Positions 488 through 14,468 are shown, counted from the first letter of the stretch. The stretch is 14,468 nt of DNA from Candidatus Hodarchaeota archaeon (GCA_029856365.1 JAHQWW010000095.1:1-14468), one strand, 5' to 3'. Numbers and translations: made by a program. The notes: generated by a model from the sequence alone, not told the origin.

Positions 488-874
488 TTAAAAGCTGATG
501 AACGAGTCCACAACTTCCTGATTCTTAATTGAGAGAAAATTCCTTTTTCCTTCTCGGGTTCGAGATATTAAACCCGCATCCTCCAACAGTGAGAGATGAT
601 GAGACACCGTTGCTTGAGCAAGATTCGTTAGATATTCAAGTTCACAATGACATTTTACTCCGTTATTTATAGCAGTTAGAATTTGAATTCTAACTGTATG
701 ATTCAAAGCTTTTATTTGCTTTCTGAATTCTTTGAACTTTGTTTGTTCCTCTAAGGTATTTAGCTTGCTTTTAAGGAGCCTTAATTCCTCTATTCGATTC
801 GAAACAGACTTCCAGTCTACCAATTCTGAGTCTAGCAGATCTTTTAATTTTTCTTTCAGTATAGAGACACTCAT
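488..874 (-). CDS. arsR: ArsR/SmtB-family metalloregulatory transcriptional repressor
   Basis: Winged-HTH signature KALNHTVRIQIL…KCHCELEYLTNLAQATVSHHLSLLEDAGLISRTREG. CHCEL corresponds to the ELCVCDL As(III)-binding box. Divergent from arsP/acr3. Has an ~45-aa N-terminal helical extension. Confidence 0.93.
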   Translation of the reverse strand: MSVSILKEKLKDLLDSELVDWKSVSNRIEELRLLKSKLNTLEEQTKFKEFRKQIKALNHTVRIQILTAINNGVKCHCELEYLTNLAQATVSHHLSLLEDAGLISRTREGKRNFLSIKNQEVVDSFISF

Positions 875-973
875 TTTAGAATAGGCCTCAATTCATTTCT
901 AAATATCATAATTCGCTCCAAACAGATATCCTGATGATTATATCAAAAAATTTTTGCCTCTTTATAATTTTAA

Positions 974-1019
974 ATATTTCGATATTTCGATATGTTTATA
1001 TATCGAAGATTATCGATAT
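974..1019. promoter_or_regulatory. Putative ArsR operator(s) overlapping an archaeal TATA box of the ars operon
   Basis: Perfect inverted repeat ATATCGA-N6-TCGATAT at 1000-1019, an interlocking one TTCGATAT-N6-ATATCGAA at 986-1007, an extra TCGATAT half-site at 979-985, and TATA-like TTTATATA at 995-1002. Lies between the divergent arsR and arsP. Confidence 0.72.
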
Positions 1020-1052
1020 GATATGAAAAAACACCTGAAGAAGGACGAACAC

Positions 1053-2432
1053 ATGGTTGAGTTTGTTAGAATGATTCAAGGAGCACTAGAGAGTGCTATA
1101 GGAACTCTACTGGATTACCTCTCTCTTCATGTGTTGCTTTGTCTTGTTCCTGCTTTCTTTATTGCAGGAGCTATGGCTTATTTTATTCCTAAAGACTTAA
1201 TTACACGATATATAGGAAAAGATGCTGACCCAAAAATAGCCTATCCTATGGCCATGGCTGGCGGTTTCCTGTTAGCAGTCTGTAGTTGTACAGTTCTCCC
1301 GTTATTTGTGAGTATTTGGAAACGGGGAGCAGGGTTGGGGCCAGCGATAACTTTCTTGTTTGTTGCACCTGCAATTAACATTCTCGCACTGACCTACACA
1401 GGAACCCTTGTAGGAATGGACATTGCCATAGCACGAGGAATTCTAGCTATCTTTTTTTCGATCTTGATAGGGTTAATTATGGCGAATGTTTTTGGAAAGG
1501 AAATAGATCAAAATAAGAGTCATATAAATAATCCAGTCAGTATCACTACAGATCCAACAATACAGGAACCCAATATTATCAATAAAATGGAGGTTTCTAA
1601 ATCAAACATTCTTTTAATTATTGGACTAGGAATCGCTTCGATATCTTTAGCTACCTTAGATTCTAATACAATTAGCACTATGGGTAATACTCTTTTCTCG
1701 GGTTTGACCATAATACTTCCATTTCTTCAGACCCCTCCTCTTCTTCAAACCATCATCTTTCTCTTGGGCCTGTTGATTCTCATTATTCTAACTTTCAAAA
1801 TTCCTAGTAAGGAATTAGTACTGTTTCTCTGGTTAGTCTATATATTAATGACAGGCACATCTCAAATCACATATTTTTCTGAGGATCTTAATCTATTAGG
1901 TGTTGTCATAAGCCCCGTTATAAGTAATATGATGATCAAACTCCTCTTGACAGGCCTGGTGGTTCTTGGATTACTTCTTTTCGTATGGAACAAGTTTGAT
2001 AAAGATGATATTAATGCTTGGCTCTTCGAGACGTGGATCTTTATAAAATCCATCTTTCCTTTAATTATAGTGGGAGTGGTCATTGCTGGTTTTGTTAAAT
2101 TCTTTATTCCTCCTGAATTAGTAGTAACGTTGGTAGGACGTAATAGTCTTCTTGCAAATCTGATTGGAGTCCTATTTGGCGTGTTTATGTACTTTCCCAC
2201 ATTGATGGAGGTGCCTATTGCCCGAATATTTTTAGACCTTGGTATGACTCGTGGGCCATTGTTAGCATATTTATTAGCGGACCCAGAATTGTCCTTACAG
2301 AGTATTCTTGTTACTCGGAAATATCTAGGTGACAAAAGAAATACTTTCTACATTATCCTGGTAACAATATTTACAACTCTTGCAGGATTAATTTTTGGAT
2401 TGGTTTTAGGTCAGGGAATAAGTTTATGGTGA
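1053..2432 (+). CDS. arsP: ArsP/DUF318-family permease (organoarsenical/arsenic efflux)
   Basis: Motifs HVLLCLVPAFFIAGA, LAVCSCTVLPLF, GAGLGPAITFLFVAPAINILA, FMYFPTLMEVPI and GPLLAYLLADPELSL; many TM helices; ars context. The ORF-track start (954) runs through the operator/TATA. ATG 1053 follows GAAGGA and is preferred; ATG 1023 is an alternative. Confidence 0.85.
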   Translation: MVEFVRMIQGALESAIGTLLDYLSLHVLLCLVPAFFIAGAMAYFIPKDLITRYIGKDADPKIAYPMAMAGGFLLAVCSCTVLPLFVSIWKRGAGLGPAITFLFVAPAINILALTYTGTLVGMDIAIARGILAIFFSILIGLIMANVFGKEIDQNKSHINNPVSITTDPTIQEPNIINKMEVSKSNILLIIGLGIASISLATLDSNTISTMGNTLFSGLTIILPFLQTPPLLQTIIFLLGLLILIILTFKIPSKELVLFLWLVYILMTGTSQITYFSEDLNLLGVVISPVISNMMIKLLLTGLVVLGLLLFVWNKFDKDDINAWLFETWIFIKSIFPLIIVGVVIAGFVKFFIPPELVVTLVGRNSLLANLIGVLFGVFMYFPTLMEVPIARIFLDLGMTRGPLLAYLLADPELSLQSILVTRKYLGDKRNTFYIILVTIFTTLAGLIFGLVLGQGISLW

Positions 2433-2468
2433 ATATTTGTTACAAGATTGTTAATTGAGGTTTAATAA

Positions 2469-3521
2469 ATGAGTAAAACAAAAACTGCGACAGAAAAAAT
2501 GTCAGTATTAGATAAATTTCTCCCTGGGTTCATTATTGCAGGCATGGTTCTAGGACTATTCATGAATCGGCTAGTACCTAACATTCAGGATATTTTCAGT
2601 CAAGTACAAATTGACACCGTCTCGCTCCCTATTGCTATTGGACTGCTTTGGATGATGTACCCGATATTGGCTAAGGTGCAATACGAGAAGATTCCTCAGG
2701 CACTCCAAGAATATAAGCTCTTTGGCACATCTGTTGTTCAGAACTGGATCATTGGCCCGATTTTCATGACACTACTTGCGTGGATATTTTTGGCGGATTA
2801 TCCTGGGTATCGAGAGGGAATAATACTAGTTGGGTTAGCTCGGTGTATCGCGATGGTTCTAATATGGAATATGCTTGCAGGAGGAGACGCAGAGAAATGT
2901 GCCATCCTAGTAGCTCTTAACAGTGTCTTTCAAATCTTCTTCTATGCCATTTATGCGTGGATTTTCATTGGGATTACGAATATCGACATTTTAGATATTG
3001 TGCGAAGTGTCTTTATTTTCTTAGGCATACCTTTAATTGCTGGATTTTTAACAAGAGAAGTATTCCGTCGTCGAAAGGGTGATGATTGGTACACCAGTGT
3101 CTTCATTCCGAAACTTGGCCCAACTGCTATAATTGGTTTGTTATTCACGGTGGTAGCGATGTTTTCTATGCAGGGTGAAAAAATAATTGGCCAACCATTA
3201 GATATCTTGATTATTGCTGTTCCTCTCTTCATCTACTTCATCGGGATGTTCATGATAAGCTTTCTACTCTCCTTTTTCTTAAAGTTCAGATATCCCGAAA
3301 CGGTTACCCTATCGTTTACAGCAGCCTCAAATAATTTTGAACTCGCTATTGCAGTTGCTATCGCCACTTTCGGGATCGATTCAGATCAGGCGTTAGCCAC
3401 CGTTGTTGGGCCTCTGATCGAGGTGCCTGTATTATTATTATTGGTGTATCTGGCTCTTTGGCTTAAGCAATATCTTTTCAAAAGTGAAATACTAAGTACA
3501 GAGCCAAATAGTGTTTCGTGA
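2469..3521 (+). CDS. acr3: Acr3-family arsenite efflux transporter
   Basis: Hallmark motifs GLLWMMYPILAKV, QNWIIGP, GLARCIAMVLIWN (essential Cys), VALNSVFQ, TAASNNFELAIAVA and VGPLIEVPVL; about 10 TM helices; GAGG upstream of the ATG. Confidence 0.96.
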   Translation: MSKTKTATEKMSVLDKFLPGFIIAGMVLGLFMNRLVPNIQDIFSQVQIDTVSLPIAIGLLWMMYPILAKVQYEKIPQALQEYKLFGTSVVQNWIIGPIFMTLLAWIFLADYPGYREGIILVGLARCIAMVLIWNMLAGGDAEKCAILVALNSVFQIFFYAIYAWIFIGITNIDILDIVRSVFIFLGIPLIAGFLTREVFRRRKGDDWYTSVFIPKLGPTAIIGLLFTVVAMFSMQGEKIIGQPLDILIIAVPLFIYFIGMFMISFLLSFFLKFRYPETVTLSFTAASNNFELAIAVAIATFGIDSDQALATVVGPLIEVPVLLLLVYLALWLKQYLFKSEILSTEPNSVS

Positions 3522-3560
3522 AAATACAAGGTGAAATATAAAACAAATGACGGAGGTTTA

Positions 3561-3815
3561 ATGGATATGACAAGAGTATTAGAAGTTTTCGGACTAGGTT
3601 GTGCAAAATGCAAGGCTTTGAAAAGAAGTACTGAAGAAGCGGTTGAAAAATTAGGCTGGCAAGATGTAAAAATTCTCTATACCACTGATATGGCTGAAGT
3701 AATCCAAAGGGGAATTACTGCTACCCCAGCATTAGCCATTGATGGGAAAATAGTGTTATCTGGTCGGTATCTTTCTGCAAATAAACTTGTAGAACTACTT
3801 CAAGAAATTGTATGA
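3561..3815 (+). CDS. Small redox-active disulfide protein (MTH895/Thioredoxin_3-like, CxxC)
   Basis: LEVFGLGCAKC…GITATPALAIDGKIVLSGR matches the small thioredoxin-like family commonly encoded beside arsP. SD GGAGG at 3552-3556 favours ATG 3561 or 3567 over the track start 3531. Confidence 0.88.
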   Translation: MDMTRVLEVFGLGCAKCKALKRSTEEAVEKLGWQDVKILYTTDMAEVIQRGITATPALAIDGKIVLSGRYLSANKLVELLQEIV

Positions 3816-3824
3816 AACTCTCAA

Positions 3825-4082
3825 GTGAAAGAGATTAAAATGACATGTCCTAAAGTTGAAGTGTTCTCTCCTACAGGAGCTTGTAGTTGTTCATTTGCTG
3901 TGTGGATTGGAAAGGTCTGGGATATTCTTATGAAATATAAAAATCGGCTTGAAATTGTGAGTCTGACCTCAGATTCTCCCCGAGCACACGAGCTTGGAGT
4001 AGGGGGTCGAACTGTTGTGATTAACGGCGAAGTCACCCCAGTTTTCTTACTTGAGCGAAAAATCCAAGAACTACTCTGTTGA
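3825..4082 (+). CDS. Small thioredoxin-fold protein with CxC motif, ArsD-like (putative As/metal chaperone)
   Basis: KVEVFSPTGACSCS at the N-terminus and GVGGRTVVINGE near the C-terminus follow the thioredoxin/ArsD layout. Lies 9 bp after the preceding gene. ATG at 3840 is an alternative start. Confidence 0.6.
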   Translation: MKEIKMTCPKVEVFSPTGACSCSFAVWIGKVWDILMKYKNRLEIVSLTSDSPRAHELGVGGRTVVINGEVTPVFLLERKIQELLC

Positions 4083-4110: not shown

Positions 4111-5607
4111 ATGGAGATAATTACAAAGACCACTAGTTTCCTCCTTTATCTTCCACATAAAATCCTGTACAGAAATCAGGAACATCTTCACTTGATACGC
4201 TACCAAAACTTTAATTATTCCCTAGATTTTATCTTCTTAGTTTATTCTTATTTTTTGGTTGGACTCATCTTGTTGAATCACTCTCCCGTAATTCGAAGTT
4301 TTATTCCTTATCTCCTGCTTATATCGTCATTTATACTTGTCATCATTCTTTCTGGTTGCATTCAACCTTTGGACCAACAACAGACTCAGGAAAACATTCC
4401 TCCTACCGCTCCTGAGGTTTTTATCAAACCAGATCCTGCGTACAGTAATACCTCCCTCACATGTATTATTATAGTCCCAAGTTATGATGCGAATAACGAT
4501 ACTGTTTCATATAATTATGAATGGTTCCTGAATGAAAGCTTTACGGGTTTAATAAGCGACTCTGTGTTATCAACGCTTACTTCCGTCGGAGATGTATGGA
4601 CATGTGTGGTTACTCCCTATGATGGGACTGATTACGGCCCTCCAGGGAACGATACCATTATGATTTCACAAGTTGAAGAACCTGCACCTGAAAATACCCC
4701 TCCATCGGCTCCTACGGTCCTTATTGAACCTGATCCTGCATATTGTAATGATACGCTTACATGCATAATCCTTATTTCGAGCTATGATGCGGATAATGAC
4801 ACTGTCACCTATTTTTATGAGTGGTTTCGGAATGGGAGTACAACTGGTTTGATGGAGGAGACAGTTTCTCCTACTCAGACTTCAATTGGAGATGAATGGA
4901 CATGTGTGATCACCCCGTATGATGGGACTGATTATGGCTCTCCAGGGAACGATACTATTGTGATTTCACAAGTTGAAGAACCTGAAAACACCCCTCCGAC
5001 TGCTCCAGTTGTCCTTATCTCTCCTGACCCAGTTTATAGTAACGATACGCTTATGTGCATCATCACAAGTCCCAGCAATGACATTGATAATGATACTATT
5101 AGTTACGTCATCGCGTGGTATTGCAACGAGGAATTAATTTACCAAAATGTCTGGGTTATTTTAGCCAATGACACCTCGGTAATGGACGTTTGGAAATGTG
5201 TGGTTACTCCTTATGATGGGAGCGATTTTGGGCCTTCTGGAAATGACAGCATTACAATTAAGGTCTTTGTTTCTGGTACTTATACTCTCAATCCGTCTAT
5301 CTCTTATACATGTGCTTATGGTTTGGTTGATTTACAATATACGCAGTTTACCTTTGTAGACGATGATACAACCCTGGTTATCCATCCAGCTATGAATGCT
5401 GAAGGTTATATGACGGGTTCTTCGGCATTAAATGGTAATATCTACGCTAGTTATTATTCACCTGGATCCTGTTCTTATCTGTTCACCTTACAGGGGAACT
5501 TTATTGATAATGAAACCTGGCAGGCCGTATTTACAGTAGAATTTACAGGTAGCACATGTTTTGATTGTTATTCTCAATCGTGGGAAATCACAGGAACCAG
5601 AGTATGA
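4111..5607 (+). CDS. Secreted lipoprotein with three tandem Ig-like repeats and a Cys-containing C-terminal domain
   Basis: Hydrophobic stretch ending in lipobox-like ILSG|C (Cys codon 4357). Three ~98-100-aa repeats ENxPPxAPxVxIxPDP…LxC…DxDND…W…W(T/K)CVxTPYDGxDxG. Many N-x-S/T sequons. The true start is probably downstream of 4111 (TTG at 4270 or 4273). Confidence 0.8.
   Translation: MEIITKTTSFLLYLPHKILYRNQEHLHLIRYQNFNYSLDFIFLVYSYFLVGLILLNHSPVIRSFIPYLLLISSFILVIILSGCIQPLDQQQTQENIPPTAPEVFIKPDPAYSNTSLTCIIIVPSYDANNDTVSYNYEWFLNESFTGLISDSVLSTLTSVGDVWTCVVTPYDGTDYGPPGNDTIMISQVEEPAPENTPPSAPTVLIEPDPAYCNDTLTCIILISSYDADNDTVTYFYEWFRNGSTTGLMEETVSPTQTSIGDEWTCVITPYDGTDYGSPGNDTIVISQVEEPENTPPTAPVVLISPDPVYSNDTLMCIITSPSNDIDNDTISYVIAWYCNEELIYQNVWVILANDTSVMDVWKCVVTPYDGSDFGPSGNDSITIKVFVSGTYTLNPSISYTCAYGLVDLQYTQFTFVDDDTTLVIHPAMNAEGYMTGSSALNGNIYASYYSPGSCSYLFTLQGNFIDNETWQAVFTVEFTGSTCFDCYSQSWEITGTRV
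4390..5262 (+). repeat. Three intragenic tandem repeats (units start at 4390, 4690, 4984)
   Basis: Periods of 300 and 294 bp. 4621-4684 and 4921-4984 match at 60 of 64 nt. Confidence 0.92.
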
Positions 5608-5691
5608 GCAATTCCTCAATCCAGTGAGAGCTGCTGAATTATTTACAGCACAGAATCTTAATTTGAAGATTTATCCTTGAAAATCGGTGAC

Positions 5692-7977
5692 TTAGGAATG
5701 TTTTTTTCTTCTCTTGTTTGTAAATAGATATAATACTGCTATTATTACGAATGTAGTGAAAGAGAACCCTGGAGAAGATATAGAAGAAGTGATCGAAGAT
5801 GTGCTAAAACTTGGAGTGGTTGTCAGATCTGCTGTAGATGTTGAGACTGAGGTTGTATCTGTAGGAATGGTTGTACTTGGTGGAATATCAATCGTGAACC
5901 AAATAACTGGGGATGCACCCATATTTCCAATAGTATCGTTTGCGAAGATAATTATTCTATGAGAGCCTTCTGAAACTTTTGCTATTATCAAGCTTTCCGC
6001 TATCGTAATATTTTCAGCACTATCGAGAGAATAGCCAATCCAAGAGGTAGGTTCGTTAACCGTAAAGTTCAACCAAATATCACTCTCTGAATAGGTAATA
6101 TTTGATGGGTGAGTAAGAATTATCGTGGGAGAATTCGTATCTATAGTGAACCAAATAAGTGCTGAATGCCCTATATTTCCTTCTGAATCATTTGCATAAA
6201 CAATAATGGAATGGTTTCCCTCTGTAAGCGAGTTTAACGAAATATTTCCTGTGATAGTTATATTAGAAGTGCCATCAAGAGAATAACCAATCCAGCAGGT
6301 AGGTTCATTAACCGTAAAGTTTAACCAAATGTTTTTTGTAGAATATGTGATGTTAGTAGGATTAATCATCAAAATACTGGGTGAAGAGGTATCAATAACT
6401 GTGACTCTTACCATATCAGTCGCATTGTTCCCATCTTCATCATAAACTGCGCAAACATATATGAATATTCCTACATTCAAACCTTTTATGTCTATAACGA
6501 TTTTATCACCCGTCCATGATCCATTGTCTATTAAAGTATCATTTTTGGTCACATTATAGAAATAAGGGTTATCGTCGGTAGGGCTCCACGTGATATTTTG
6601 GTCTATTACCCCTTTTTCATAAGTAATATTATCAGGACTATCGATGACTGGACCTTGAAGAGTTATCACACCTATTGTATCAGGAACACTAGCAATAAAG
6701 CCATCACTGACGGTTAGATTGAAAACATACTCACCTATTAAATCTGGGATTAAGCTAGGGCTAGGAGATAACGTGTCATCTAGTAGTGCAGTGCTTCCTA
6801 TAGGATTTGAAATAATTTCCCAGTTATAAAACAATTCATCTTCATCTAAATCATAACTTCTGCTCGCATCTAGATTTATGGTATTTCCAAGAAGGATTGT
6901 ATGATTAGCACCTGCATCAGCAATAGGTGCCCGATTCTGTTTGCGATTTATTAAGGGATAATTGTCGCTATTGTCTCCTCCAGGAATATTATATGGACTA
7001 TCACCTATTCCGTCACCGTCATTATCAATATCACCATAATCTGACCAATAATTCCCTCCAGAAGGGTAGCTATTATCCCAATAATTTACACAACTATCGT
7101 TAACGTTTTGCCAATTGTCAAGAATGTTATTATGATAAATGGAATTGTTGTGTGACTCATCATAAATCCATATACCATATTGCGTGCTATTTGCAATTGT
7201 ATTATTCTTAATTATATTCCCCTGAGATTGATCTCTTATAATAACACCATAAGAATTATTATTATATATGTTATTCTTGATTTTATTACCATTTGCTTGC
7301 TGAAAAATCATACCTGCAAAAAATGTTGAGTTAGAAACAATATTATTCGTGAATATATTATCATTAACTAAAGAAAGATAAAAGCCATACCTAGAGGAGT
7401 TATATATTATGTTATTTGAAAAAAAATTGTTGTTAGAACCACTGCGAATATACATACCATAATCGCTATTAATGATCGAGTTGTTACAAAGACTATTATC
7501 TATTCCAAAAGTTAGGTAAACACCAATGTTTAATGTATCCCCAAAATTCCCAATGATATTGCATTTAGAAATGTTACAATCATCACCCGTGATATAAATT
7601 CCATAATGTTGAAATCCTTTATGATGTATTGTGAAGTTTGAGATTGTTATAGCGTCAGCATTTATTGATACTACATGACTAGAATCATTAGTTATTATAG
7701 TATCTTGATTACTCTCACCGATTATTGTTAAATTGTTTTTATTAATGAGAATACTTTCAGTATAAATCCCGTTGGAAACAATAATAATGTCCTCCGAAGT
7801 AGCTGCATCAATTGCTGCTTGAATGGTTTTATAATCACCCTCAGGACCAACATACCATATAGTTCCCCCTCCTCTAACCTTAGTAATTGATAAAAAAGAA
7901 TTCTCCGTTCCTGAAATAAAGGAATTAAACATTATAAGACAAATAACAATTATAAATAGATGTTTTTTACTCCACAT
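5692..7977 (-). CDS. Cell-surface glycoprotein: NosD/CASH parallel beta-helix + PKD-like + Ig-like repeats + S/T linker + PGF-CTERM-like anchor
   Basis: Signal peptide; YVGPEGDYKTIQAAID…GIYTESI beta-helix cap; Asn-rich PbH repeats; WDNSYPSGGNYWSDY…DGDGIGDSPY; NRAPIADAG…LDASRSYDLD (PKD-like); three Ig-like units; Thr/Ser-rich linker; SPGF + TM helix + KRRKK. Confidence 0.88.
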   Translation of the reverse strand: MWSKKHLFIIVICLIMFNSFISGTENSFLSITKVRGGGTIWYVGPEGDYKTIQAAIDAATSEDIIIVSNGIYTESILINKNNLTIIGESNQDTIITNDSSHVVSINADAITISNFTIHHKGFQHYGIYITGDDCNISKCNIIGNFGDTLNIGVYLTFGIDNSLCNNSIINSDYGMYIRSGSNNNFFSNNIIYNSSRYGFYLSLVNDNIFTNNIVSNSTFFAGMIFQQANGNKIKNNIYNNNSYGVIIRDQSQGNIIKNNTIANSTQYGIWIYDESHNNSIYHNNILDNWQNVNDSCVNYWDNSYPSGGNYWSDYGDIDNDGDGIGDSPYNIPGGDNSDNYPLINRKQNRAPIADAGANHTILLGNTINLDASRSYDLDEDELFYNWEIISNPIGSTALLDDTLSPSPSLIPDLIGEYVFNLTVSDGFIASVPDTIGVITLQGPVIDSPDNITYEKGVIDQNITWSPTDDNPYFYNVTKNDTLIDNGSWTGDKIVIDIKGLNVGIFIYVCAVYDEDGNNATDMVRVTVIDTSSPSILMINPTNITYSTKNIWLNFTVNEPTCWIGYSLDGTSNITITGNISLNSLTEGNHSIIVYANDSEGNIGHSALIWFTIDTNSPTIILTHPSNITYSESDIWLNFTVNEPTSWIGYSLDSAENITIAESLIIAKVSEGSHRIIIFANDTIGNMGASPVIWFTIDIPPSTTIPTDTTSVSTSTADLTTTPSFSTSSITSSISSPGFSFTTFVIIAVLYLFTNKRRKKHS
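5885..6395 (-). repeat. Two tandem 84-aa Ig-like repeats (252-bp period)
   Basis: 6026-6078 and 6278-6330 match at 48 of 53 nt. Both encode IWLNFTVNEPTxWIGYSLD…EGxHxIIxxANDxxGNxG…IWFTID. Boundaries are approximate. Confidence 0.88.
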
Positions 7978-8204
7978 TATTTCATCTTCTTCGTCAGATT
8001 GAAATCCTTGAAGTGTTTAGTTGAAATTTTAATCATCAATTATAGGAGAAGTTACTCGTTTCTCTTTAGCTTTTAAATTTATAAAATAGTACTATTGACA
8101 GAAAATCATTGCTAAAAATCAACAAACGTAGAAAATCATATTAGAGACTTAAATGACTCACTGATTTGTTTTAGTGATCAGTTATAGAATTCTGAACTTC
8201 AAGT

Positions 8205-8798
8205 TCAGATGGTATATCGGATCTGAGTGTCTCGAATGTAGATCGATATTTCTGCTGATAGTTTTGTTAAAAGTGTATGAGCTTGAGCAGTTAACCCCAG
8301 TCTAGTTATTATATTGAGAGCAAGACTATTTAATAGATCTGTCACGAAAAATTCATTTAAAATAGTTTCTAACCAGTGTAAGAAGAAAAGCTGGAAAGGG
8401 GGGATCTTATTAGAAGTAAACCAAACAGCATTTCTGTGTTCCATTTTATATAATTGCCTCATCATATGTAATCGCAGCAAACGGTTTTTCCCAAAATGAG
8501 TGTGATAATCTTGAGCATGTTCAAGATATCTTTGTTGAAGATTTGAAAGCTCAATATTCAATTCACCTGCTATTCCCCTTACAACATCAGATATCTTGAA
8601 ACGAATTAAATATGCTTGTTCGATGGAATCAAGTAGGCTTCGGAAAAGTTTTTTTAAGTCATGAATTGCTTCACTGGTTGAATCAGCATTATTTTGATAA
8701 ATACATCCTCCAAATAAAATAAGGGGCTCGCGATCAGGAAATTGATTTTGATAATATAAAAAAGTTCTTGGTTCTTCAATGATACCCATCTTGCTCAA
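8205..8798 (-). CDS. Hypothetical soluble, mostly alpha-helical protein
   Basis: 197-aa ORF with a strong SD (AAGGAG, 6 nt before TTG). No signal peptide or clear TM helix, and no recognised family. Confidence 0.7.
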   Translation of the reverse strand: MSKMGIIEEPRTFLYYQNQFPDREPLILFGGCIYQNNADSTSEAIHDLKKLFRSLLDSIEQAYLIRFKISDVVRGIAGELNIELSNLQQRYLEHAQDYHTHFGKNRLLRLHMMRQLYKMEHRNAVWFTSNKIPPFQLFFLHWLETILNEFFVTDLLNSLALNIITRLGLTAQAHTLLTKLSAEISIYIRDTQIRYTI

Positions 8799-9245
8799 TT
8801 TTTACTCCTTACTTATACTTTTGAAGCTATCTAAATAATTCATTAGCAATTTTCCAGATTATGAGAAAATAATTCGTTTTTCAGAATAAAATGCTAAAAA
8901 AGGAGTTAAACGATTATATATAGATAGGTATATCGAGAAGGCATTAACCTATCCAACGATCAACGATATTGTTTGACTTTTCTACTCTTCAGGTTCAAGA
9001 ATCTTGATTCTTCCTCAAATACACATAACTTGGGTTATTTTTCTCTCTTTCATTAATGTATAATAAAATTAAATTCATAGTAAAAAGATATATTAATTAA
9101 ATATTATATATAAAACTACTTATATAATAAATTCTAGATTACTAAGAAATGACACATTTCTAGAATATTTGACACAATATCATATCTTTGTGTTTTATTA
9201 AACATCACACATCTAACAAATTCAAAATACTATTTCATACACGAA

Positions 9246-12200
9246 TTGAGAAATTTTGGAGTATTATTGGTGGATCAGCACAATAATATTATTTCGTCTC
9301 TTGTAGTTATCATTACTTTATCTTGCATTATATTGTTCTATTTCTCGTTTTATTCTGGGGTTAAAGAAGAAGTAAGTAGTTACCTAAATCTTTCTTTAAG
9401 AAATTTGGGAGATGTAAAAAACAATGGATCTTTTTCTTATTCATTTCCAATTGATAGGGATTTTTTGTCGAAAGAGGCTAAAAAAGATGGAATAAATTAT
9501 AAATTAGAAAATGAATCCAATTTAATTGTACTAAAACCAAATGGTAATGGTAATAAATCCGAAATTCCTTCAGAAACACCTATCGGTGGAATTCATTGGC
9601 AATTGGTATCAGATAACAATGATAGTAGTTACATAATTGAGAATATAGCAACAGCAACATCCTTTACGGATACATATCAAGTCCAAAATGTAAGTAGTAT
9701 CCCGGGTGTAATTCTTTCCGTATCTGTAAATGTCCGTGCTCGTACAAGTATAGCTTTTTCTAATGGACGAGTAATGACGATATTACGTACATATGATAAT
9801 GAATATATAGGATCTACAAATGAGCCCACAGATAATTGGAAAAACTATTCGGATATCTTTTTCTCCAATCCCATTACTTTGTCAAATTGGACATGGAGTG
9901 AAGTAAATTCAATGGAGGTCGGAGTAACATTACGAGCATTACCACAACAAAATAGAGAATGTTGGTGTTCTGAAGTTTGGGTAGAGGTCAATTATACCCA
10001 AATAGACGATAATATTCCTCCCATGGTTAATGATTTTGGAATAAATGATTATGGTAATGGTAGTGGAACTTTTTGGGCAGATATTAAAGACCCCCTATCA
10101 GGTGTGGAAACAGTATTAATCTCAATTAATGGGTCTGAATATTCGATGATTAATAACGGATCTCATTGGATTTATCCTGTTTTAGGCGAATATAATGCTT
10201 GTTATGATTATCAGATAACGAATTCTTCGGATTTAAGTGGAAATTATCTCAACTCCACTTCCAATATTAAGGGTTATACTTTCAACAAAGATATTGTTAA
10301 TCCAAAAGTAGGATTACCTGTTTATGATCCAGAGTTTGGAAATAATGGAACCTTCAGGGTAAATGTAACTGATTCTTGGGGAGAAATTGACATTGTCTTG
10401 GTAAGTATTACTGAATCTCAAGGAGTTCCCAAAAATGATCTCTGGACTGTAATGGTTCACACTGACACTGAGTTCATTACTGATAACTTATTAATAGATA
10501 AAGGTAGTTTTAAATATGTTATTATCGCAAATGATACGGCTGGAAATTTAAATTCATCCGTTGAAATGAGTTCCAATTCTCCAAATCATATTCCTGAAAT
10601 ATTTGATTTATTTCTTTCGAGGGACCAGGATAATCGAAATTTTTCTATTGATAGCAATTGTACCCTATATGCACATTATTCATTTTTTGATATTGATAAT
10701 GATAGCGAAATAGGAAGTGAAATCCGTTGGTATAGGAATGGGATTATACAACCAGCTCATAACAATTCCTTCCAAATCTCATCTACTTATCTTTTGAAAA
10801 ATGATGTGTGGTATGTCACCGTTAAACCAAAAGATGGTCAAAACTTTGGGTTTTTACAAGTGTCTGATTTAATTACAGTGAGGAATATTCACCCCTTTGT
10901 AAACAATTATTACTATGTCTTTGAAATGAATCAAAGTCAAGTTTTACCAGATCTCAGATCAAATTTAGCTACTCAGATATTTTTTGTAGAAGATGAAAAC
11001 ATTTCCATTTCCTATAAGTTTGAAGATTATGATGAACCTATCGATTTTGATCAATCAAAGATTCAATGGTTTTATCAATCTAATTCTGGTCCATGGGTCG
11101 AAGCTATTCCTTATCAAAACAAAACTTACATACCCTCATCTGTAACATCATCAGGAGATTATTGGAAATGCATTCTTACTCCCTTTGATGGCATGGATAT
11201 TGGCAGAAGTGTGGATTTTGGAGTGATATATATCGAAAGCCGCCCTACTATCTTAATGTACTCAGTGTCATCTGTTATTGTTAACAATATAGGATTATAT
11301 TATAATGAAGGTAATTATGAGTTTCAAATAGTAGCTAACAATCTTAGACCAATTAGTAGTGTGGAATTTCTAATTAATGATACCTATAATAGTCCTTATT
11401 ACGCAATAAAAAGCAATGAAAACGATTCTAACTGGATTCTAGATTACAGAATACCACTTGAAGAATTTCAAGAAGTTTTTTTGAATAATGTTCTTACATC
11501 AGAAGTTAGAGTTTGTAGTTTAGTTGAATATGAAGGCAAAGAATTTACAATATACGCTAAATGTATATTTTCTATTACTATTGAAGATGAAACTCCCCCA
11601 CGGGTTGTAGGAACCCCCATTTTCGAATTAAATGATGAAGTGAATCCAAGTTCTATTACATTTTATACAAATGTCGTAGACTATGGTTCTGAAATTACAA
11701 ATGTATCCCTCTATTACTATTATAAAAGAGTCACTGAAAATGAGAAGAGTATCAGTGGGGGAGGAGCAGGTTATCAACAAGAAAATAAACCAAGTTGGAA
11801 TATTGCTGATATGTCCTTTTTATCATTTGACGCGACCAATAAAATTCACACTTATTCTGTTACTGTTCCATTTAATTATAATGGGTCATCCAGAGCAATA
11901 ATTTTCTATATTGAAACTACTGATAGTAGCGGAAACAAAGGGATTACGTATGATGTAACCAATAATCCTGAGATGATAAGAGAAATACGTTTTGTCCATC
12001 TACCCGTAGAATTTGATCCTTCTATAATGATAATATTTTTTGCCGTTGGAATTTTGTTGTCATTTTTTGGATCAATTGTCTACACGAAATTCATCAGGAA
12101 ACCTGAAATTATAGGATTTGATAAAGAATTAGTTATTACCAAGATTTCTGAAATCAAAGAAGTAGAAATACTGGAAATACTAGATGTTCATACTTTAGGA

Positions 12201-12713
12201 GTGGTTACTTCTTTTTTTGATCAACTTCATGGTCCAGTTCCGATTATTGTCACCCCCGAGATATTGAAGGATAATATTACTAAGTTAATAGAATTATCTG
12301 ATCGCTCTTTTGCAACTACAGGTTTTAAAGATGATACTGAAGGAGAAATTTGCTCATTTTTTGACTTTCTAATATCTGAGGATGTTCGGATAATATCATT
12401 ATCTTTTGGTTTTGCTTTGAAACGCCCCAAAGCCAGAGGTGGTGTAGAAAATCTATCGTTGAACATTCTGATATATCATGATTTATTTAAGGTCATTTCT
12501 CATTTTCTTGACGAAATTCAGCAAAAAGTCCATAGTTTGCATGAACTTATGAACGAACATGGTTCAGAAAAAGAAATAATAGTATCAAAAGTAATTGAAC
12601 TCAGAAAATTCATCTCTTATATTATCTTAGCATATGAAAAAACTTATGATAATACTGATCTTATAATACAAAGCATGACCAATTTAGAGAGAGAAATTAA
12701 ATCCCAAAACTAA
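9246..12713 (+). CDS. Large receptor-like membrane protein: N-terminal signal/anchor, multi-Ig ectodomain, TM helix, cytoplasmic FLCN/SMCR8-type longin (uDENN)-like domain
   Basis: N-terminal hydrophobic helix; beta-rich, sequon-rich ectodomain with two W-x-x-(NG)…W…P-x-DG repeats; TM at aa 927-946 followed by KFIRK; cytoplasmic GVVTSFFDQLHGPVP and RPKARGGVENLSLNILI. GTG at 9270, after GGAGT, is a likely alternative start. Confidence 0.8.
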   Translation: MRNFGVLLVDQHNNIISSLVVIITLSCIILFYFSFYSGVKEEVSSYLNLSLRNLGDVKNNGSFSYSFPIDRDFLSKEAKKDGINYKLENESNLIVLKPNGNGNKSEIPSETPIGGIHWQLVSDNNDSSYIIENIATATSFTDTYQVQNVSSIPGVILSVSVNVRARTSIAFSNGRVMTILRTYDNEYIGSTNEPTDNWKNYSDIFFSNPITLSNWTWSEVNSMEVGVTLRALPQQNRECWCSEVWVEVNYTQIDDNIPPMVNDFGINDYGNGSGTFWADIKDPLSGVETVLISINGSEYSMINNGSHWIYPVLGEYNACYDYQITNSSDLSGNYLNSTSNIKGYTFNKDIVNPKVGLPVYDPEFGNNGTFRVNVTDSWGEIDIVLVSITESQGVPKNDLWTVMVHTDTEFITDNLLIDKGSFKYVIIANDTAGNLNSSVEMSSNSPNHIPEIFDLFLSRDQDNRNFSIDSNCTLYAHYSFFDIDNDSEIGSEIRWYRNGIIQPAHNNSFQISSTYLLKNDVWYVTVKPKDGQNFGFLQVSDLITVRNIHPFVNNYYYVFEMNQSQVLPDLRSNLATQIFFVEDENISISYKFEDYDEPIDFDQSKIQWFYQSNSGPWVEAIPYQNKTYIPSSVTSSGDYWKCILTPFDGMDIGRSVDFGVIYIESRPTILMYSVSSVIVNNIGLYYNEGNYEFQIVANNLRPISSVEFLINDTYNSPYYAIKSNENDSNWILDYRIPLEEFQEVFLNNVLTSEVRVCSLVEYEGKEFTIYAKCIFSITIEDETPPRVVGTPIFELNDEVNPSSITFYTNVVDYGSEITNVSLYYYYKRVTENEKSISGGGAGYQQENKPSWNIADMSFLSFDATNKIHTYSVTVPFNYNGSSRAIIFYIETTDSSGNKGITYDVTNNPEMIREIRFVHLPVEFDPSIMIIFFAVGILLSFFGSIVYTKFIRKPEIIGFDKELVITKISEIKEVEILEILDVHTLGVVTSFFDQLHGPVPIIVTPEILKDNITKLIELSDRSFATTGFKDDTEGEICSFFDFLISEDVRIISLSFGFALKRPKARGGVENLSLNILIYHDLFKVISHFLDEIQQKVHSLHELMNEHGSEKEIIVSKVIELRKFISYIILAYEKTYDNTDLIIQSMTNLEREIKSQN

Positions 12714-12731
12714 GAAACTGAATTTGGGATT
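12700..12731. terminator. Possible hairpin between convergent genes
   Basis: AATCCCAAA (12700-12708) and TTTGGGATT (12723-12731) form a 9-bp inverted repeat with a 14-nt loop spanning the stop codon. Archaeal terminators are often only oligo-T, so the role is uncertain. Confidence 0.3.
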
Positions 12732-12772
12732 CAAATGAATAAACTTCTTACTCAACTGTCAAAAATACATTC

Positions 12773-13390
12773 CTACTGTCTTTTTTTATGTTGATACACG
12801 ATACCCAAAACTATCGATGTGATTACTAACCACACTTCAAAACCTGGGGTTATATCTGGAGTGGAAGAACTACTAAAATTTTGAGGATTAGAAATCCACC
12901 CCTTGGTTACAAAAGCTGCTATAATTGAGATTTCAACAGTTAATTCGGCTTCCCATATACTACTATCCCCTGTGGAGGCTAGAAAATCTAGCTTCTGCAT
13001 ACTGCCTGCTAATGATGGAGAAATGATGTTATACCAGCTGACATCAAGAGGATCGCTACTCCCCCCTTTTGTGGACCAATTAAGTTCCCCATAGCTAGCC
13101 CAGTTACCATCACTATTCTTTTCCCAAAGACGAAGATATAGAATCACTAAATCAGCTCCTGTTAATGTTGAAACATCAAATTCAACTATAAAGTCGTCAT
13201 CGGAAGGATCAACTTCTCCTTTCCAAAGATCGTAGGAATAAGTAAGACTCTGGTCTTTAGTATAAATATCTCGAGCAGCTATTCCCAGATTAAAGATTGA
13301 GGATTCTTTAGCAGCAGTGATAGGATGAATGGTAAGAAAAAGTAGTATAAGCAAAAATTCATATAGAATATATTTAGACTTAATGTGCAT
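12773..13390 (-). CDS. Small secreted surface protein with PGF-CTERM-like anchor
   Basis: Signal peptide (…HPITA|A), single beta-rich domain, SSSST linker, TPGFE + TM helix + HKKRQ. SD GGAGG lies inside the end of the upstream gene, whose stop is 3 bp away. Confidence 0.82.
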   Translation of the reverse strand: MHIKSKYILYEFLLILLFLTIHPITAAKESSIFNLGIAARDIYTKDQSLTYSYDLWKGEVDPSDDDFIVEFDVSTLTGADLVILYLRLWEKNSDGNWASYGELNWSTKGGSSDPLDVSWYNIISPSLAGSMQKLDFLASTGDSSIWEAELTVEISIIAAFVTKGWISNPQNFSSSSTPDITPGFEVWLVITSIVLGIVYQHKKRQ

Positions 13391-13393
13391 AAT

Positions 13394-14468
13394 TTATTCC
13401 TCCTTTTTAATAGAAAAAATTAAACGTCGCCTCAGTAGCAAACCAAAAGCAATCAAAGACAATAGGGGAAAGATAACCGAGAATCCTGTAGAAGTATCTG
13501 ATTTATCTGTTCCTGTCTCTGGGGACTCTATCAGAACAGTTATCATTGCACTTCCACGATTGCCTGCAAGATCGTACACTACAACTTCAATGTTATGGAG
13601 ACCCTCAGGTAAAGTAATCTCAACTATACAACATGGGAAGAGAACTCGAGTAACAATAGATCCATTAACAAGTACTTCTGCTTCTGAAAAACTAGAGGAA
13701 TCAACAACACTCCAAACAATCTTAATTGATTCACTCTGCATTGGTTTTTCAAGGTTATTACTGGGCCTTATAATTGTAACAATTGGTGGGGTCGCGTCAA
13801 CAGTGAAAGAAATTGTTTCATGTGCAATATTACCTGCACTATCAGAACTGTAAGCATGCAGGAGATGATGACCATCTGATAAGCTGACATTCACTGGTTT
13901 TAACCATGACTGATTTTGTATGTTAACCCCTTCGATATTGTATATCAACCATATAGTATCGTTGTCACCAGAAAGATCGATAAGAATCTCTGTTCCATAG
14001 AGCGCATTGGTGGGACTAAGAATGATTAATTCGGGAGGAGTAGTATCAACATTGAATCTAGATTGAGCATGAATGGTATTACCAGCTGAATCATTCCCAT
14101 AAGCATGAAATACATATGTGCCATCATTGATTATTCGATCCAAACTAGCAGTCCAGCTCTGATTCACAGTGTCTAACCCCTCGATGAAGTACCAATAATG
14201 CTCCACGTTGCCAGAGAGATTGATGGAAATAGTTGGAGTTGAATAGGTTGTGTTGGTAGGACTTTCAATATTTAAAACGAGAAGTGAGGTGCCAATGACG
14301 ACATGAGGAGAAATCTCTAGTGTACTGTTACTTGTTCCATCACTTAATTGAATAGTAAAATACCAATCTTCTCCATCAGCAGTTTCACTTGAGGGGATAA
14401 TAACTAGGTTCATATACACCGATTGTTCAACTCCATTTTTATACCAGGTAATAAATGAGATAGTTTCT
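13394..14468 (-). CDS. C-terminal part of a large Ig-repeat surface protein with CTERM-type anchor (5' end outside the window)
   Basis: The frame is open to the window edge (ETISFITWYKNGVEQSVYMN…), so 14419 is not the real start. Contains one WYKNG…GEDW…SDG repeat, three SPxN…DG-x-H/Y…D-x-AGN Ig units, then STGF + TM helix + RRR. Confidence 0.85.
   Translation of the reverse strand, partial: ETISFITWYKNGVEQSVYMNLVIIPSSETADGEDWYFTIQLSDGTSNSTLEISPHVVIGTSLLVLNIESPTNTTYSTPTISINLSGNVEHYWYFIEGLDTVNQSWTASLDRIINDGTYVFHAYGNDSAGNTIHAQSRFNVDTTPPELIILSPTNALYGTEILIDLSGDNDTIWLIYNIEGVNIQNQSWLKPVNVSLSDGHHLLHAYSSDSAGNIAHETISFTVDATPPIVTIIRPSNNLEKPMQSESIKIVWSVVDSSSFSEAEVLVNGSIVTRVLFPCCIVEITLPEGLHNIEVVVYDLAGNRGSAMITVLIESPETGTDKSDTSTGFSVIFPLLSLIAFGLLLRRRLIFSIKKEE

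Follow-up and report, generated by a model that had tools for sequence, protein, structure and literature searches.

The question raised by one gene of Candidatus Hodarchaeota archaeon (GCA_029856365.1, JAHQWW010000095.1:1-14468) is whether a protein exposed on the surface of an archaeal cell can carry, on the inner side of the membrane, a regulator of small GTPases of a eukaryotic kind. The window analysed is this whole stretch of 14,468 nt, and the gene occupies positions 9246-12713 on its plus strand. Longin-type GTPase-activating protein (GAP) complexes (folliculin, GATOR1 and C9orf72-SMCR8) control the Rag and Arf GTPases at the eukaryotic lysosome, and the Heimdall class of archaea is the group most often placed closest to eukaryotes. 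The intracellular end of the protein studied here is predicted to be a longin domain of the folliculin (FLCN) type, so that the surface of the archaeal cell may be coupled to a GTPase switch of eukaryotic style. The reading favoured in the present work, with modest confidence, is that a folliculin-type longin, carried on an adhesin-like protein and thereby anchored in the membrane, regulates Rag-type GTPases and is probably a GAP.

Topology and fold of the cytoplasmic domain

The gene is an uninterrupted reading frame of 1155 amino acids (aa) which, as the initial annotation of this DNA had described it from the sequence, consists of an N-terminal hydrophobic segment, a sequon-rich ectodomain, a single transmembrane (TM) helix and a C-terminal tail of 209 aa. 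The features on which the argument depends are the following, with positions counted along the window.

9246..12713, plus strand: whole gene, 1155 aa from the TTG codon at 9246; an alternative start, the GTG codon at 9270 (8 codons in), gives 1147 aa
9288..9356, plus strand: N-terminal hydrophobic segment, aa 15-37 (hydropathy; helix 5-37 in the AlphaFold2 (AF2) model)
12024..12083, plus strand: single TM helix, aa 927-946, followed by the positive stretch T-KFIRK (hydropathy; AF2 model)
12084..12710, plus strand: predicted cytoplasmic longin domain, aa 947-1155, with two short helices, a beta-beta-alpha-beta-beta-beta core and a long helical hairpin (AF2; VIA structural comparison)
12231..12236, plus strand: GP motif G996-P997 within FDQLHGPVP, in the beta1-beta2 turn (conservation; position as that of the GP motif in PMC12290439)
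12435..12437, plus strand: candidate arginine finger R1064 within RPKARGG, in the beta4-beta5 loop (conservation; profile alignments)

The true start may be the GTG codon at 9270, because the database copy of the protein (P0002) is 1147 aa long. Exactly two hydrophobic segments are found by hydropathy: that at aa 15-37, which is either a signal peptide or a signal anchor, and the TM helix, which falls where the annotation had placed it (nt ~12024-12083) and is followed by the positive-inside KFIRK. The orientation of the protein can be predicted from the distribution of sequons and of charge. The ectodomain holds 29 N-x-S/T sequons against about 15 expected from its composition, and the tail holds 2. 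In 90 members of the family the density of sequons is 2.87 per 100 aa in the ectodomain, twice the expectation, and 0.86 in the tail, and the net charges that adjoin the TM helix sum to +205 on the side of the tail and to -60 on the opposite side. This asymmetry of sequons and charge therefore predicts that the ectodomain lies outside the cell and the tail inside; a tail outside the cell, which the annotation had named as an outcome that would count against its proposal, is accordingly disfavoured. The predicted layout is type-I-like and single-pass, with the ectodomain outside, one TM helix and a folded domain inside, and the protein is thus predicted to be a glycosylated single-pass cell-surface protein, N-out and C-in after its N-terminal segment.

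The fold of the tail was assessed from an AF2 model computed with a 32-sequence alignment (predicted local distance difference test, pLDDT, 92.3; predicted template-modelling score, pTM, 0.84). In tail numbering the model contains strands 37-46 and 50-57, helix 59-79, strands 88-98, 101-113 and 121-131, and helices 132-158 and 163-208, which is the longin topology, beta-beta-alpha-beta-beta-beta-alpha(-alpha) with a five-stranded sheet. An unbiased VIA comparison of the model with 48,161 PDB chains returned one Asgard longin and a set of eukaryotic longin-GAP complexes as its top seven rows: the Lokiarchaeial longin domain (8yqg, Z 14.4), the folliculin complex 6nzd (Z 12.1), the C9orf72-SMCR8 entry 7o2w (Z 11.8), the Lst4 longin (Z 11.5), the GATOR1 entry 8fw5 (Z 11.2), the SEA complex (Z 10.4) and the FLCN-FNIP2 entry 6ulg (Z 10.1). 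DENND1A follows at Z 9.2, the longins of TRAPP, AP sigma and the SNAREs at Z about 7-8.5 (longin SNAREs 6.5-7.5), and roadblock proteins at Z about 6 (6.0-6.3). As modelled, the tail is a longin domain, and the longins closest to it are those of the GAP complexes, of FLCN/SMCR8/NPRL2 type. Searches of the PDB by sequence, with the tail profile and with a soluble member of the family, returned only de novo helical designs or nothing.

The longins that act as GAPs, namely FLCN, NPRL2, SMCR8 and C9orf72, are set apart from other longins by a GP motif at the start of beta2 which adjoins the arginine finger, and some Asgard longins carry both the motif and the finger (PMC12290439, Traffic 2025). 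In the tail, G996-P997 lies between strands 37-46 and 50-57, at the place expected of a GAP-type longin. The arginine finger is recognized as a conserved arginine in the loop before the last strand (FLCN R164, SMCR8 R147, NPRL2 R78), and R1064 occupies the corresponding position, in tail loop 114-120. When conservation was counted across 119 cluster representatives of the family, G996 and P999 were present in all 119, P997 and R1064 in 117 each, E1068 in 115 and N1069 in 111. The only two representatives that lack an arginine equivalent to R1064 are both soluble proteins with no TM helix.

A chain of profile alignments connects the tail to recognizable folliculin-type proteins. The source genome encodes a soluble 443-aa protein (G000:C9, L021:625-1956, minus strand) which matches the Pfam family PF11704 Folliculin at 31.4 bits, above the gathering cut-off of 23.3 bits; its N-terminal part is a Folliculin-type longin with a GP motif and the sequence DPKARG, about 280 aa without an assigned fold follow, and it represents, in the source genome, the canonical soluble FLCN-like protein of Asgard archaea. 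When the tail profile is aligned to this protein with hhalign (89.8% probability), GP falls on GP and RPxARGG on DPKARGK. In a Lokiarchaeial protein of 480 aa, a longin of the same kind is fused to a Gtr1/RagA GTPase (Pfam E 7.9e-24), and here the alignment reaches 95.6% probability in the same register, with GP aligned and the arginine on DPEARG; in the reverse search, with the Lokiarchaeial longin against the source genome, the tail of the present protein is the first match. Fusions of longins to GTPases in Lokiarchaeia (longin-Rag-roadblock) have already been described (PMC10933270). The initial annotation's assignment of the tail to the FLCN/SMCR8/NPRL2 type is thus upheld by the VIA scores (Z 11-14), by the near-invariant GP and arginine and by the profile alignment to the Folliculin-positive reading frame. 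The source genome also holds a soluble tail paralogue of 184 aa (G000:C49, L015:980-1534, plus strand; cluster representative P0142) which has kept the GP motif and lost the ARGG arginine loop; judged by its sequence, it is a candidate for a non-catalytic partner longin or else a decaying copy.

The tail family and its linkage to Rag-type GTPases

An exhaustive HMMER search of 1.84 billion representatives found the tail in 149 clusters, always at the extreme C-terminus of proteins of about 200 to 5,809 aa. A hydrophobic helix lies directly upstream of the tail in 102 of the 108 matches that have a complete tail and enough upstream sequence, and the tail ends within 25 aa of the protein C-terminus in 110 of 110. 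The source genome itself has about ten copies, nearly all of which end open frames of 956-2971 aa, many of them interrupted by contig ends. The distribution of the family was surveyed in a phylum-wide sample of 300 genomes. Within the same genus, 19 of 20 genomes give strong matches, the highest count per genome being at least seven and the open frames extending to 10,431 aa. In two further families of the class the tail is matched in 20 of 29 and 8 of 11 genomes, with 1-4 copies each and frames of about 1,450-1,640 aa, and there are two strong matches (best E 1.4e-98) in one more genome, G025, which is assigned to a different family. Outside the class there are otherwise only weak matches (E 1e-6 to 1e-10), the one inspected being a longin-Rag fusion. 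The tail family is therefore essentially confined to the Heimdall class; the source names of the relatives are Hodarchaeales and Heimdallarchaeota. A tandem cluster of tail-bearing genes recurs in the genus (G118:C87, G210:C52, G061:C193, G129:C14 and, in the source genome, G000:C52) and comprises a gene for a giant protein of ~8,800-10,400 aa, another for ~1,540 aa and, in those genomes where there are three genes rather than two, one for ~1,000 aa.

If the tail regulates small GTPases, candidate partners must exist in the same cell. The source genome has 56 matches above cut-off to the Pfam Arf model, a model which also detects other small GTPases, and about eight strong matches of Gtr1/RagA type; a genome empty of small-GTPase partners, which the annotation had said would tell against it, is not what is found. 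The strong Rag-type matches lie at G000:C12:8550-9122, C12:7507-8040, C96:35258, C96:38028, C96:31796, C136:6590, C41:14637 and C10:5961. Many relatives of the gene moreover lie close to Rag-type genes. Five genomes from other families of the Heimdall class hold 14 tail genes, of which 11 are linked to Rag: for nine of these the distance to a Gtr1/RagA-type gene is about 250 bp or less, mostly with both genes on one strand, and the remaining two are one gene upstream in tandem. Among the 35 tail genes of five same-genus genomes, seven have a strong Rag-type match no more than 3 kb away, three of them within 500 bp, where a rough estimate of the chance expectation for the seven is ~0.5; these cases are not all independent, because some are orthologous. 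In one case, at G101:C1, which was verified from the reading-frame listing and by Pfam, a tail gene encoding 3704 aa is followed, after a gap of 57 bp, by a same-strand gene for a 300-aa Gtr1/RagA protein.

Several arrangements recur at these loci. At G132:C13, G026:C1, G195:C97, G126:C85 and G234:C8 tail genes are followed within ~200 bp by an open reading frame (ORF) of 470-670 aa with an N-terminal Gtr1/RagA domain, and in four of these five genomes there is also a convergent Rag-type gene of ~411 aa nearby; the arrangement has the appearance of a conserved module. Two divergently transcribed Rag-type genes, which encode ~300 aa and ~740 aa (the larger product having a long extension at its C-terminus), form a conserved pair at G000:C12:7507-9122, G255:C1:2894146-2895736, G210:C28:59573-61038 and G101:C4:50080-51423, and in several genomes this pair adjoins a tail-bearing gene.

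The ectodomain and the surface-protein island

The features outside the membrane, together with the neighbouring gene that lies upstream, are as follows.

9363..10007, plus strand: distal ectodomain, aa 40-254 (pLDDT <50; only orthologues align)
10008..12005, plus strand: chain of ~7 Ig/FN3-like beta-sandwich domains, aa 255-920, rich in N-glycosylation sequons (AF2; Foldseek; hydropathy and sequons)
10593..11273, plus strand: two copies (about aa 450-558 and 575-676) of a repeat of about 95-100 aa with the motif W-x-C/x-x-x-P-x-DG (blastp between ORFs of the window; sequences)
8205..8798, minus strand: P0160, divergent neighbour, 197 aa, no TM helix and no family match (conserved beside the orthologue in two of three genomes)

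The full-length AF2 model, computed with 32 homologues, has a mean pLDDT of 72.8 and shows about seven all-beta domains at aa 255-920 (block pLDDT 75-93), which are followed by a TM helix at 925-949 and by the tail in folded form. The Foldseek matches of the ectodomain are strings of Ig/FN3 domains, including those of titin, contactin, Robo and the grappling hook GhpA. Since aa 40-255 have no confident model (pLDDT <50), beta-sandwich modules are shown for ~665 of the ~890 ectodomain residues, and the annotation's description of the whole ~890 aa as beta-sandwich modules stands for aa 255-920 and not for the part distal to them. That distal region, aa 40-254, is specific to the orthologue group. 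About 450 aa of the membrane-proximal ectodomain are common to the protein and many of its paralogues; the distal parts are unlike one another and in some cases include Laminin_G_3/ConA-like and DUF2341 domains. The annotation had held that a constant tail with variable ectodomains would support a receptor family, and a constant C-terminal module is found on diverse ectodomains, with the correction that the constant part is larger than the tail and includes these ~450 aa.

The repeat in the ectodomain, whose invariant residues in the protein are W522/D530 and W640/D648, recurs three times in the ORF at 4111-5607 and again in the partial ORF at 13394-14467 (minus strand), as found by blastp between the ORFs of the window. 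The first of these, on the plus strand, encodes 498 aa with an N-terminal membrane segment and three tandem repeats of ~95 aa (WxCVxTPYDGxDxG), and has no Pfam match. Positions 4111-14468 as a whole form an island of secreted or surface proteins around the gene. Three of its ORFs, at 5692-7977, 12773-13390 and 13394-14467 (all minus strand), end in PGF or TGF, a TM segment and basic residues, which resembles the PGF-CTERM signal for archaeosortase, and that at 5692-7977 is a NosD/beta-helix protein with PKD and Big domains. The island that contains the gene thus uses at least two modes of anchoring.

The divergent neighbour P0160 is 85-89% identical beside the orthologue in two genomes in which the orthologue itself is only 53-54% identical. 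Of 22 genomes of the genus, the source genome included, 11 hold it, as a single copy; it is absent next to the orthologue in G255, and G101 has it with no tail gene of the orthologue's size. P0160 was considered as a possible partner longin, but it shows no detectable similarity to the tail (hhalign probability against the tail profile 0.5%); a search of the ESM Atlas gave no usable match. At the far end of the window, positions 488-4082 hold a cluster that resembles those for arsenic resistance, with a helix-turn-helix protein of ArsR type (488-874, minus strand), a permease of ArsP type (954-2432), a transporter of the ACR3/SBF family (2469-3521), a thioredoxin-like protein (3531-3815) and an 85-aa protein without a Pfam match (3825-4082).

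Proposed role, alternatives and significance

The mechanism suggested by these observations is as follows. Outside the cell, a stalk of Ig/FN3-like beta-sandwich domains, as modelled, would bear the variable distal region on top, in the manner of an adhesin. Inside, directly after the TM helix, the predicted longin of FLCN/SMCR8/NPRL2 type, with its GP motif and conserved arginine, would bind a Rag-type small GTPase at the membrane and would probably speed its hydrolysis of GTP, with R1064 as the arginine finger. The tail would most likely work as a longin homodimer or heterodimer, compare FLCN-FNIP, NPRL2-NPRL3 and SMCR8-C9orf72. The state of the GTPase would then be set locally, at the place where the surface protein sits. 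A more speculative step is that clustering or contact of the ectodomains joins the tails and changes their activity, which would amount to outside-in signalling. Judged from sequence, GAP activity of the tail toward a Rag or Arf GTPase is probable; the coupling of the protein as an outside-in receptor is a matter that we infer only.

A number of observations weigh against a regulator of this kind and must be set beside the evidence for it. Longin domains are more often platforms for guanine-nucleotide exchange factors (GEFs), or adaptors, than they are GAPs. A Pfam search with the whole protein and with the tail gave no match at E<=1; only five of 32 family members have matches to PF11704 Folliculin, all of them sub-threshold and weak (best E 5e-4), and the tail itself does not reach the gathering cut-off. 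The DENN domain that follows the longin in FLCN, SMCR8 and FNIP is absent, and the protein ends after the longin helical hairpin. The equivalence of R1064, a candidate, to FLCN R164 is one of motif and position rather than of superposition, and a conserved arginine and GP motif are no proof of catalysis. The linkage to Rag-type genes, furthermore, does not extend to the gene itself. None of its three orthologues has a GTPase gene in its vicinity (one is at least 296 kb from any Rag-type gene, and the 410-kb and 113-kb contigs that carry the other two have none), and the contigs of the source genome that carry tail paralogues, including that of the gene, have no GTPase match on any of them, these contigs being short. 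An inspection of gene neighbourhoods, which the annotation had proposed, therefore supports the relatives, many of which lie directly beside Rag-type genes, and not the protein or its three orthologues. Since the linkage is common across families and lacking at these orthologues, the protein looks like a dispersed paralogue, and since it lies in a surface-protein island with no Rag gene, its partner must be encoded elsewhere.

These points leave room for explanations in which the tail does something other than accelerate hydrolysis. A less likely though substantial possibility is that it is a landmark or scaffold, a docking platform which recruits a Rag-type GTPase as an effector site, GEF platform or adaptor and which steers the placement, clustering and turnover of the adhesin from the inside out, with neither a GAP role nor outside-in signalling. 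Most characterised longin/roadblock dimers are indeed platforms or GEFs (PMC10933270), a family of 7-10 copies per genome with diverse adhesin-like ectodomains would suit a generic module for anchoring or sorting, and the Rag linkage of the relatives fits such a module equally well. What argues for a GAP is that the GP motif and the arginine, which distinguish GAPs from GEF and adaptor longins, are almost invariant in the family, and that the structural ranking puts the longins of GAP complexes above those of TRAPP, AP and the SNAREs. The same residues bear on a purely structural role, in which the tail would dimerize or oligomerize surface proteins or tie them to a cytoplasmic lattice or the cytoskeleton, as an alternative to the PGF-CTERM anchoring of the neighbours, and would involve no GTPase. 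The Lokiarchaeial longin was crystallised as a dimer (according to the title of 8yqg), the neighbours in the island use a different anchor, the PGF-CTERM-like signal, and the gene has no GTPase neighbour; this role is nevertheless improbable, as it leaves unexplained an invariant arginine and GP motif in surface loops, the tight synteny of the relatives with Rag-type genes across families and the Lokiarchaeial proteins in which a related longin is fused to a Rag GTPase.

Two further possibilities concern the identity of the domain and the integrity of the gene. The top Foldseek match of the tail by E-value is a LOV protein, and GAF and LuxR-type ligand-binding domains appear in VIA at Z about 6, which could suggest a small-molecule sensor of PAS/LOV/GAF type rather than a longin. 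The LOV matches, however, have root-mean-square deviations of 10-35 Å and a TM-score of 0.3 and were rejected as spurious because of these deviations; longins reach VIA Z 10-14 against at most 6.4 for PAS/GAF-like domains, the VIA list contains no PAS or LOV entry, and the order of strands and helices is that of a longin, so that a sensor domain is very improbable. The suspicion of an artefact, a chimeric assembly or mis-called fusion of a surface-protein gene and a separate longin gene, arises from the source genome, a fragmented metagenome-assembled genome of 204 contigs which is 84% complete. It is effectively refuted, because full-length orthologues with 53-77% identity over about 1130 aa exist in independent genomes and metagenomes; more than 100 cluster representatives, some from genomes assembled as a single contig, share the architecture, and homologues of the tail that are never fused to ectodomains, the sign of a chimera for which the annotation had asked to look, are thus not the rule.

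The favoured reading, that of a membrane-anchored Rag regulator, can be extended to the family as a whole, in a form that we regard as unlikely on present evidence. The proteins would then be a TM signalling family of the Heimdall class in which clustering of the giant adhesin-like ectodomains, driven by contact or by a ligand, dimerizes FLCN-type longins that act as arginine-finger GAPs for Rag, a pre-eukaryotic receptor-to-Rag switch ancestral to lysosomal FLCN, GATOR1 and C9orf72-SMCR8, which in a genus of Hodarchaeales type would have radiated to 7-10 receptors per cell acting on a common Rag pool.

The longin fold of the tail is held in common with FLCN-FNIP, C9orf72-SMCR8-WDR41, GATOR1 and the yeast complexes Lst7-Lst4 and Npr2-Npr3. 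The specific likeness to FLCN, SMCR8 and NPRL2 lies in the GP before beta2, in the conserved arginine of an xP/xARG loop before the last strand and in the genetic linkage of the relatives to Rag-type GTPases. The eukaryotic proteins are soluble, have a DENN or other C-terminal domain, form heterodimers and are recruited to lysosomes by adaptors, whereas the tail is a lone longin of 209 aa in one polypeptide chain with a TM helix and an ectodomain of ~890 aa. The soluble FLCN/SMCR8-type longins of Asgard archaea (PMC12290439) and the longin-Rag-roadblock fusions of Lokiarchaeia (PMC10933270) have the same type of domain and the same signature residues, but they are cytosolic or fused to a GTPase, while in the present family the longin stands behind a TM helix on giant surface proteins. 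In those two papers the word "transmembrane" occurs 0 times, and neither a transmembrane nor an extracellular part is mentioned. No description of a TM-fused Asgard longin on single-pass giant surface proteins was found in full-text searches of the literature, the 15 Asgard sequences of PMC12290439 not having been compared, and longin and folliculin are not mentioned in the main text of Eme et al. 2023 and Köstlbacher et al. 2026. The annotation's remark that no characterised example was known thus holds for the TM-fused architecture of a membrane receptor, which appears undescribed, and does not hold for Asgard longins of FLCN type with a GP motif and arginine finger, which have been published (PMC12290439).

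Three other kinds of protein invite comparison. Longin SNAREs (VAMP7, Sec22, Ykt6) are likewise membrane-anchored with a cytosolic longin, but their fold matches less well and their longin is N-terminal, followed by a SNARE motif and a C-terminal tail anchor, with no ectodomain and no GP/arginine signature. Surface proteins of the PGF-CTERM/archaeosortase type, of which there are three such neighbours in the window, have glycosylated Ig-like ectodomains as the present protein is predicted to have, but it lacks the PGF motif and has a folded cytoplasmic domain of 209 aa in place of a short basic stub. Plexins are single-pass receptors of animals with a large Ig/IPT-type ectodomain, one TM helix and an intrinsic cytoplasmic Rap-GAP that is activated by induced dimerization. 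They offer the closest functional analogy to the family, as something that may work alike only, for they differ in fold (RasGAP-like rather than longin) and in GTPase family, are confined to animals and have no homology to it.

The known Asgard longins with these signature residues are soluble, and in the present family the same domain appears to be fixed to the plasma membrane as part of a protein with a large glycosylated ectodomain. The protein of the window is itself a less informative paralogue, unlinked to Rag; in our judgement its tail, which is short and predicted to be soluble, should be easy to express for assays. If the tail is active, it would provide a concrete, testable archaeal pair of Rag and regulator, it would represent a mode of prokaryotic signalling that works without kinases or two-component relays, and it would hint that the control of Rag began in association with the surface or the membrane, before there were internal organelles.

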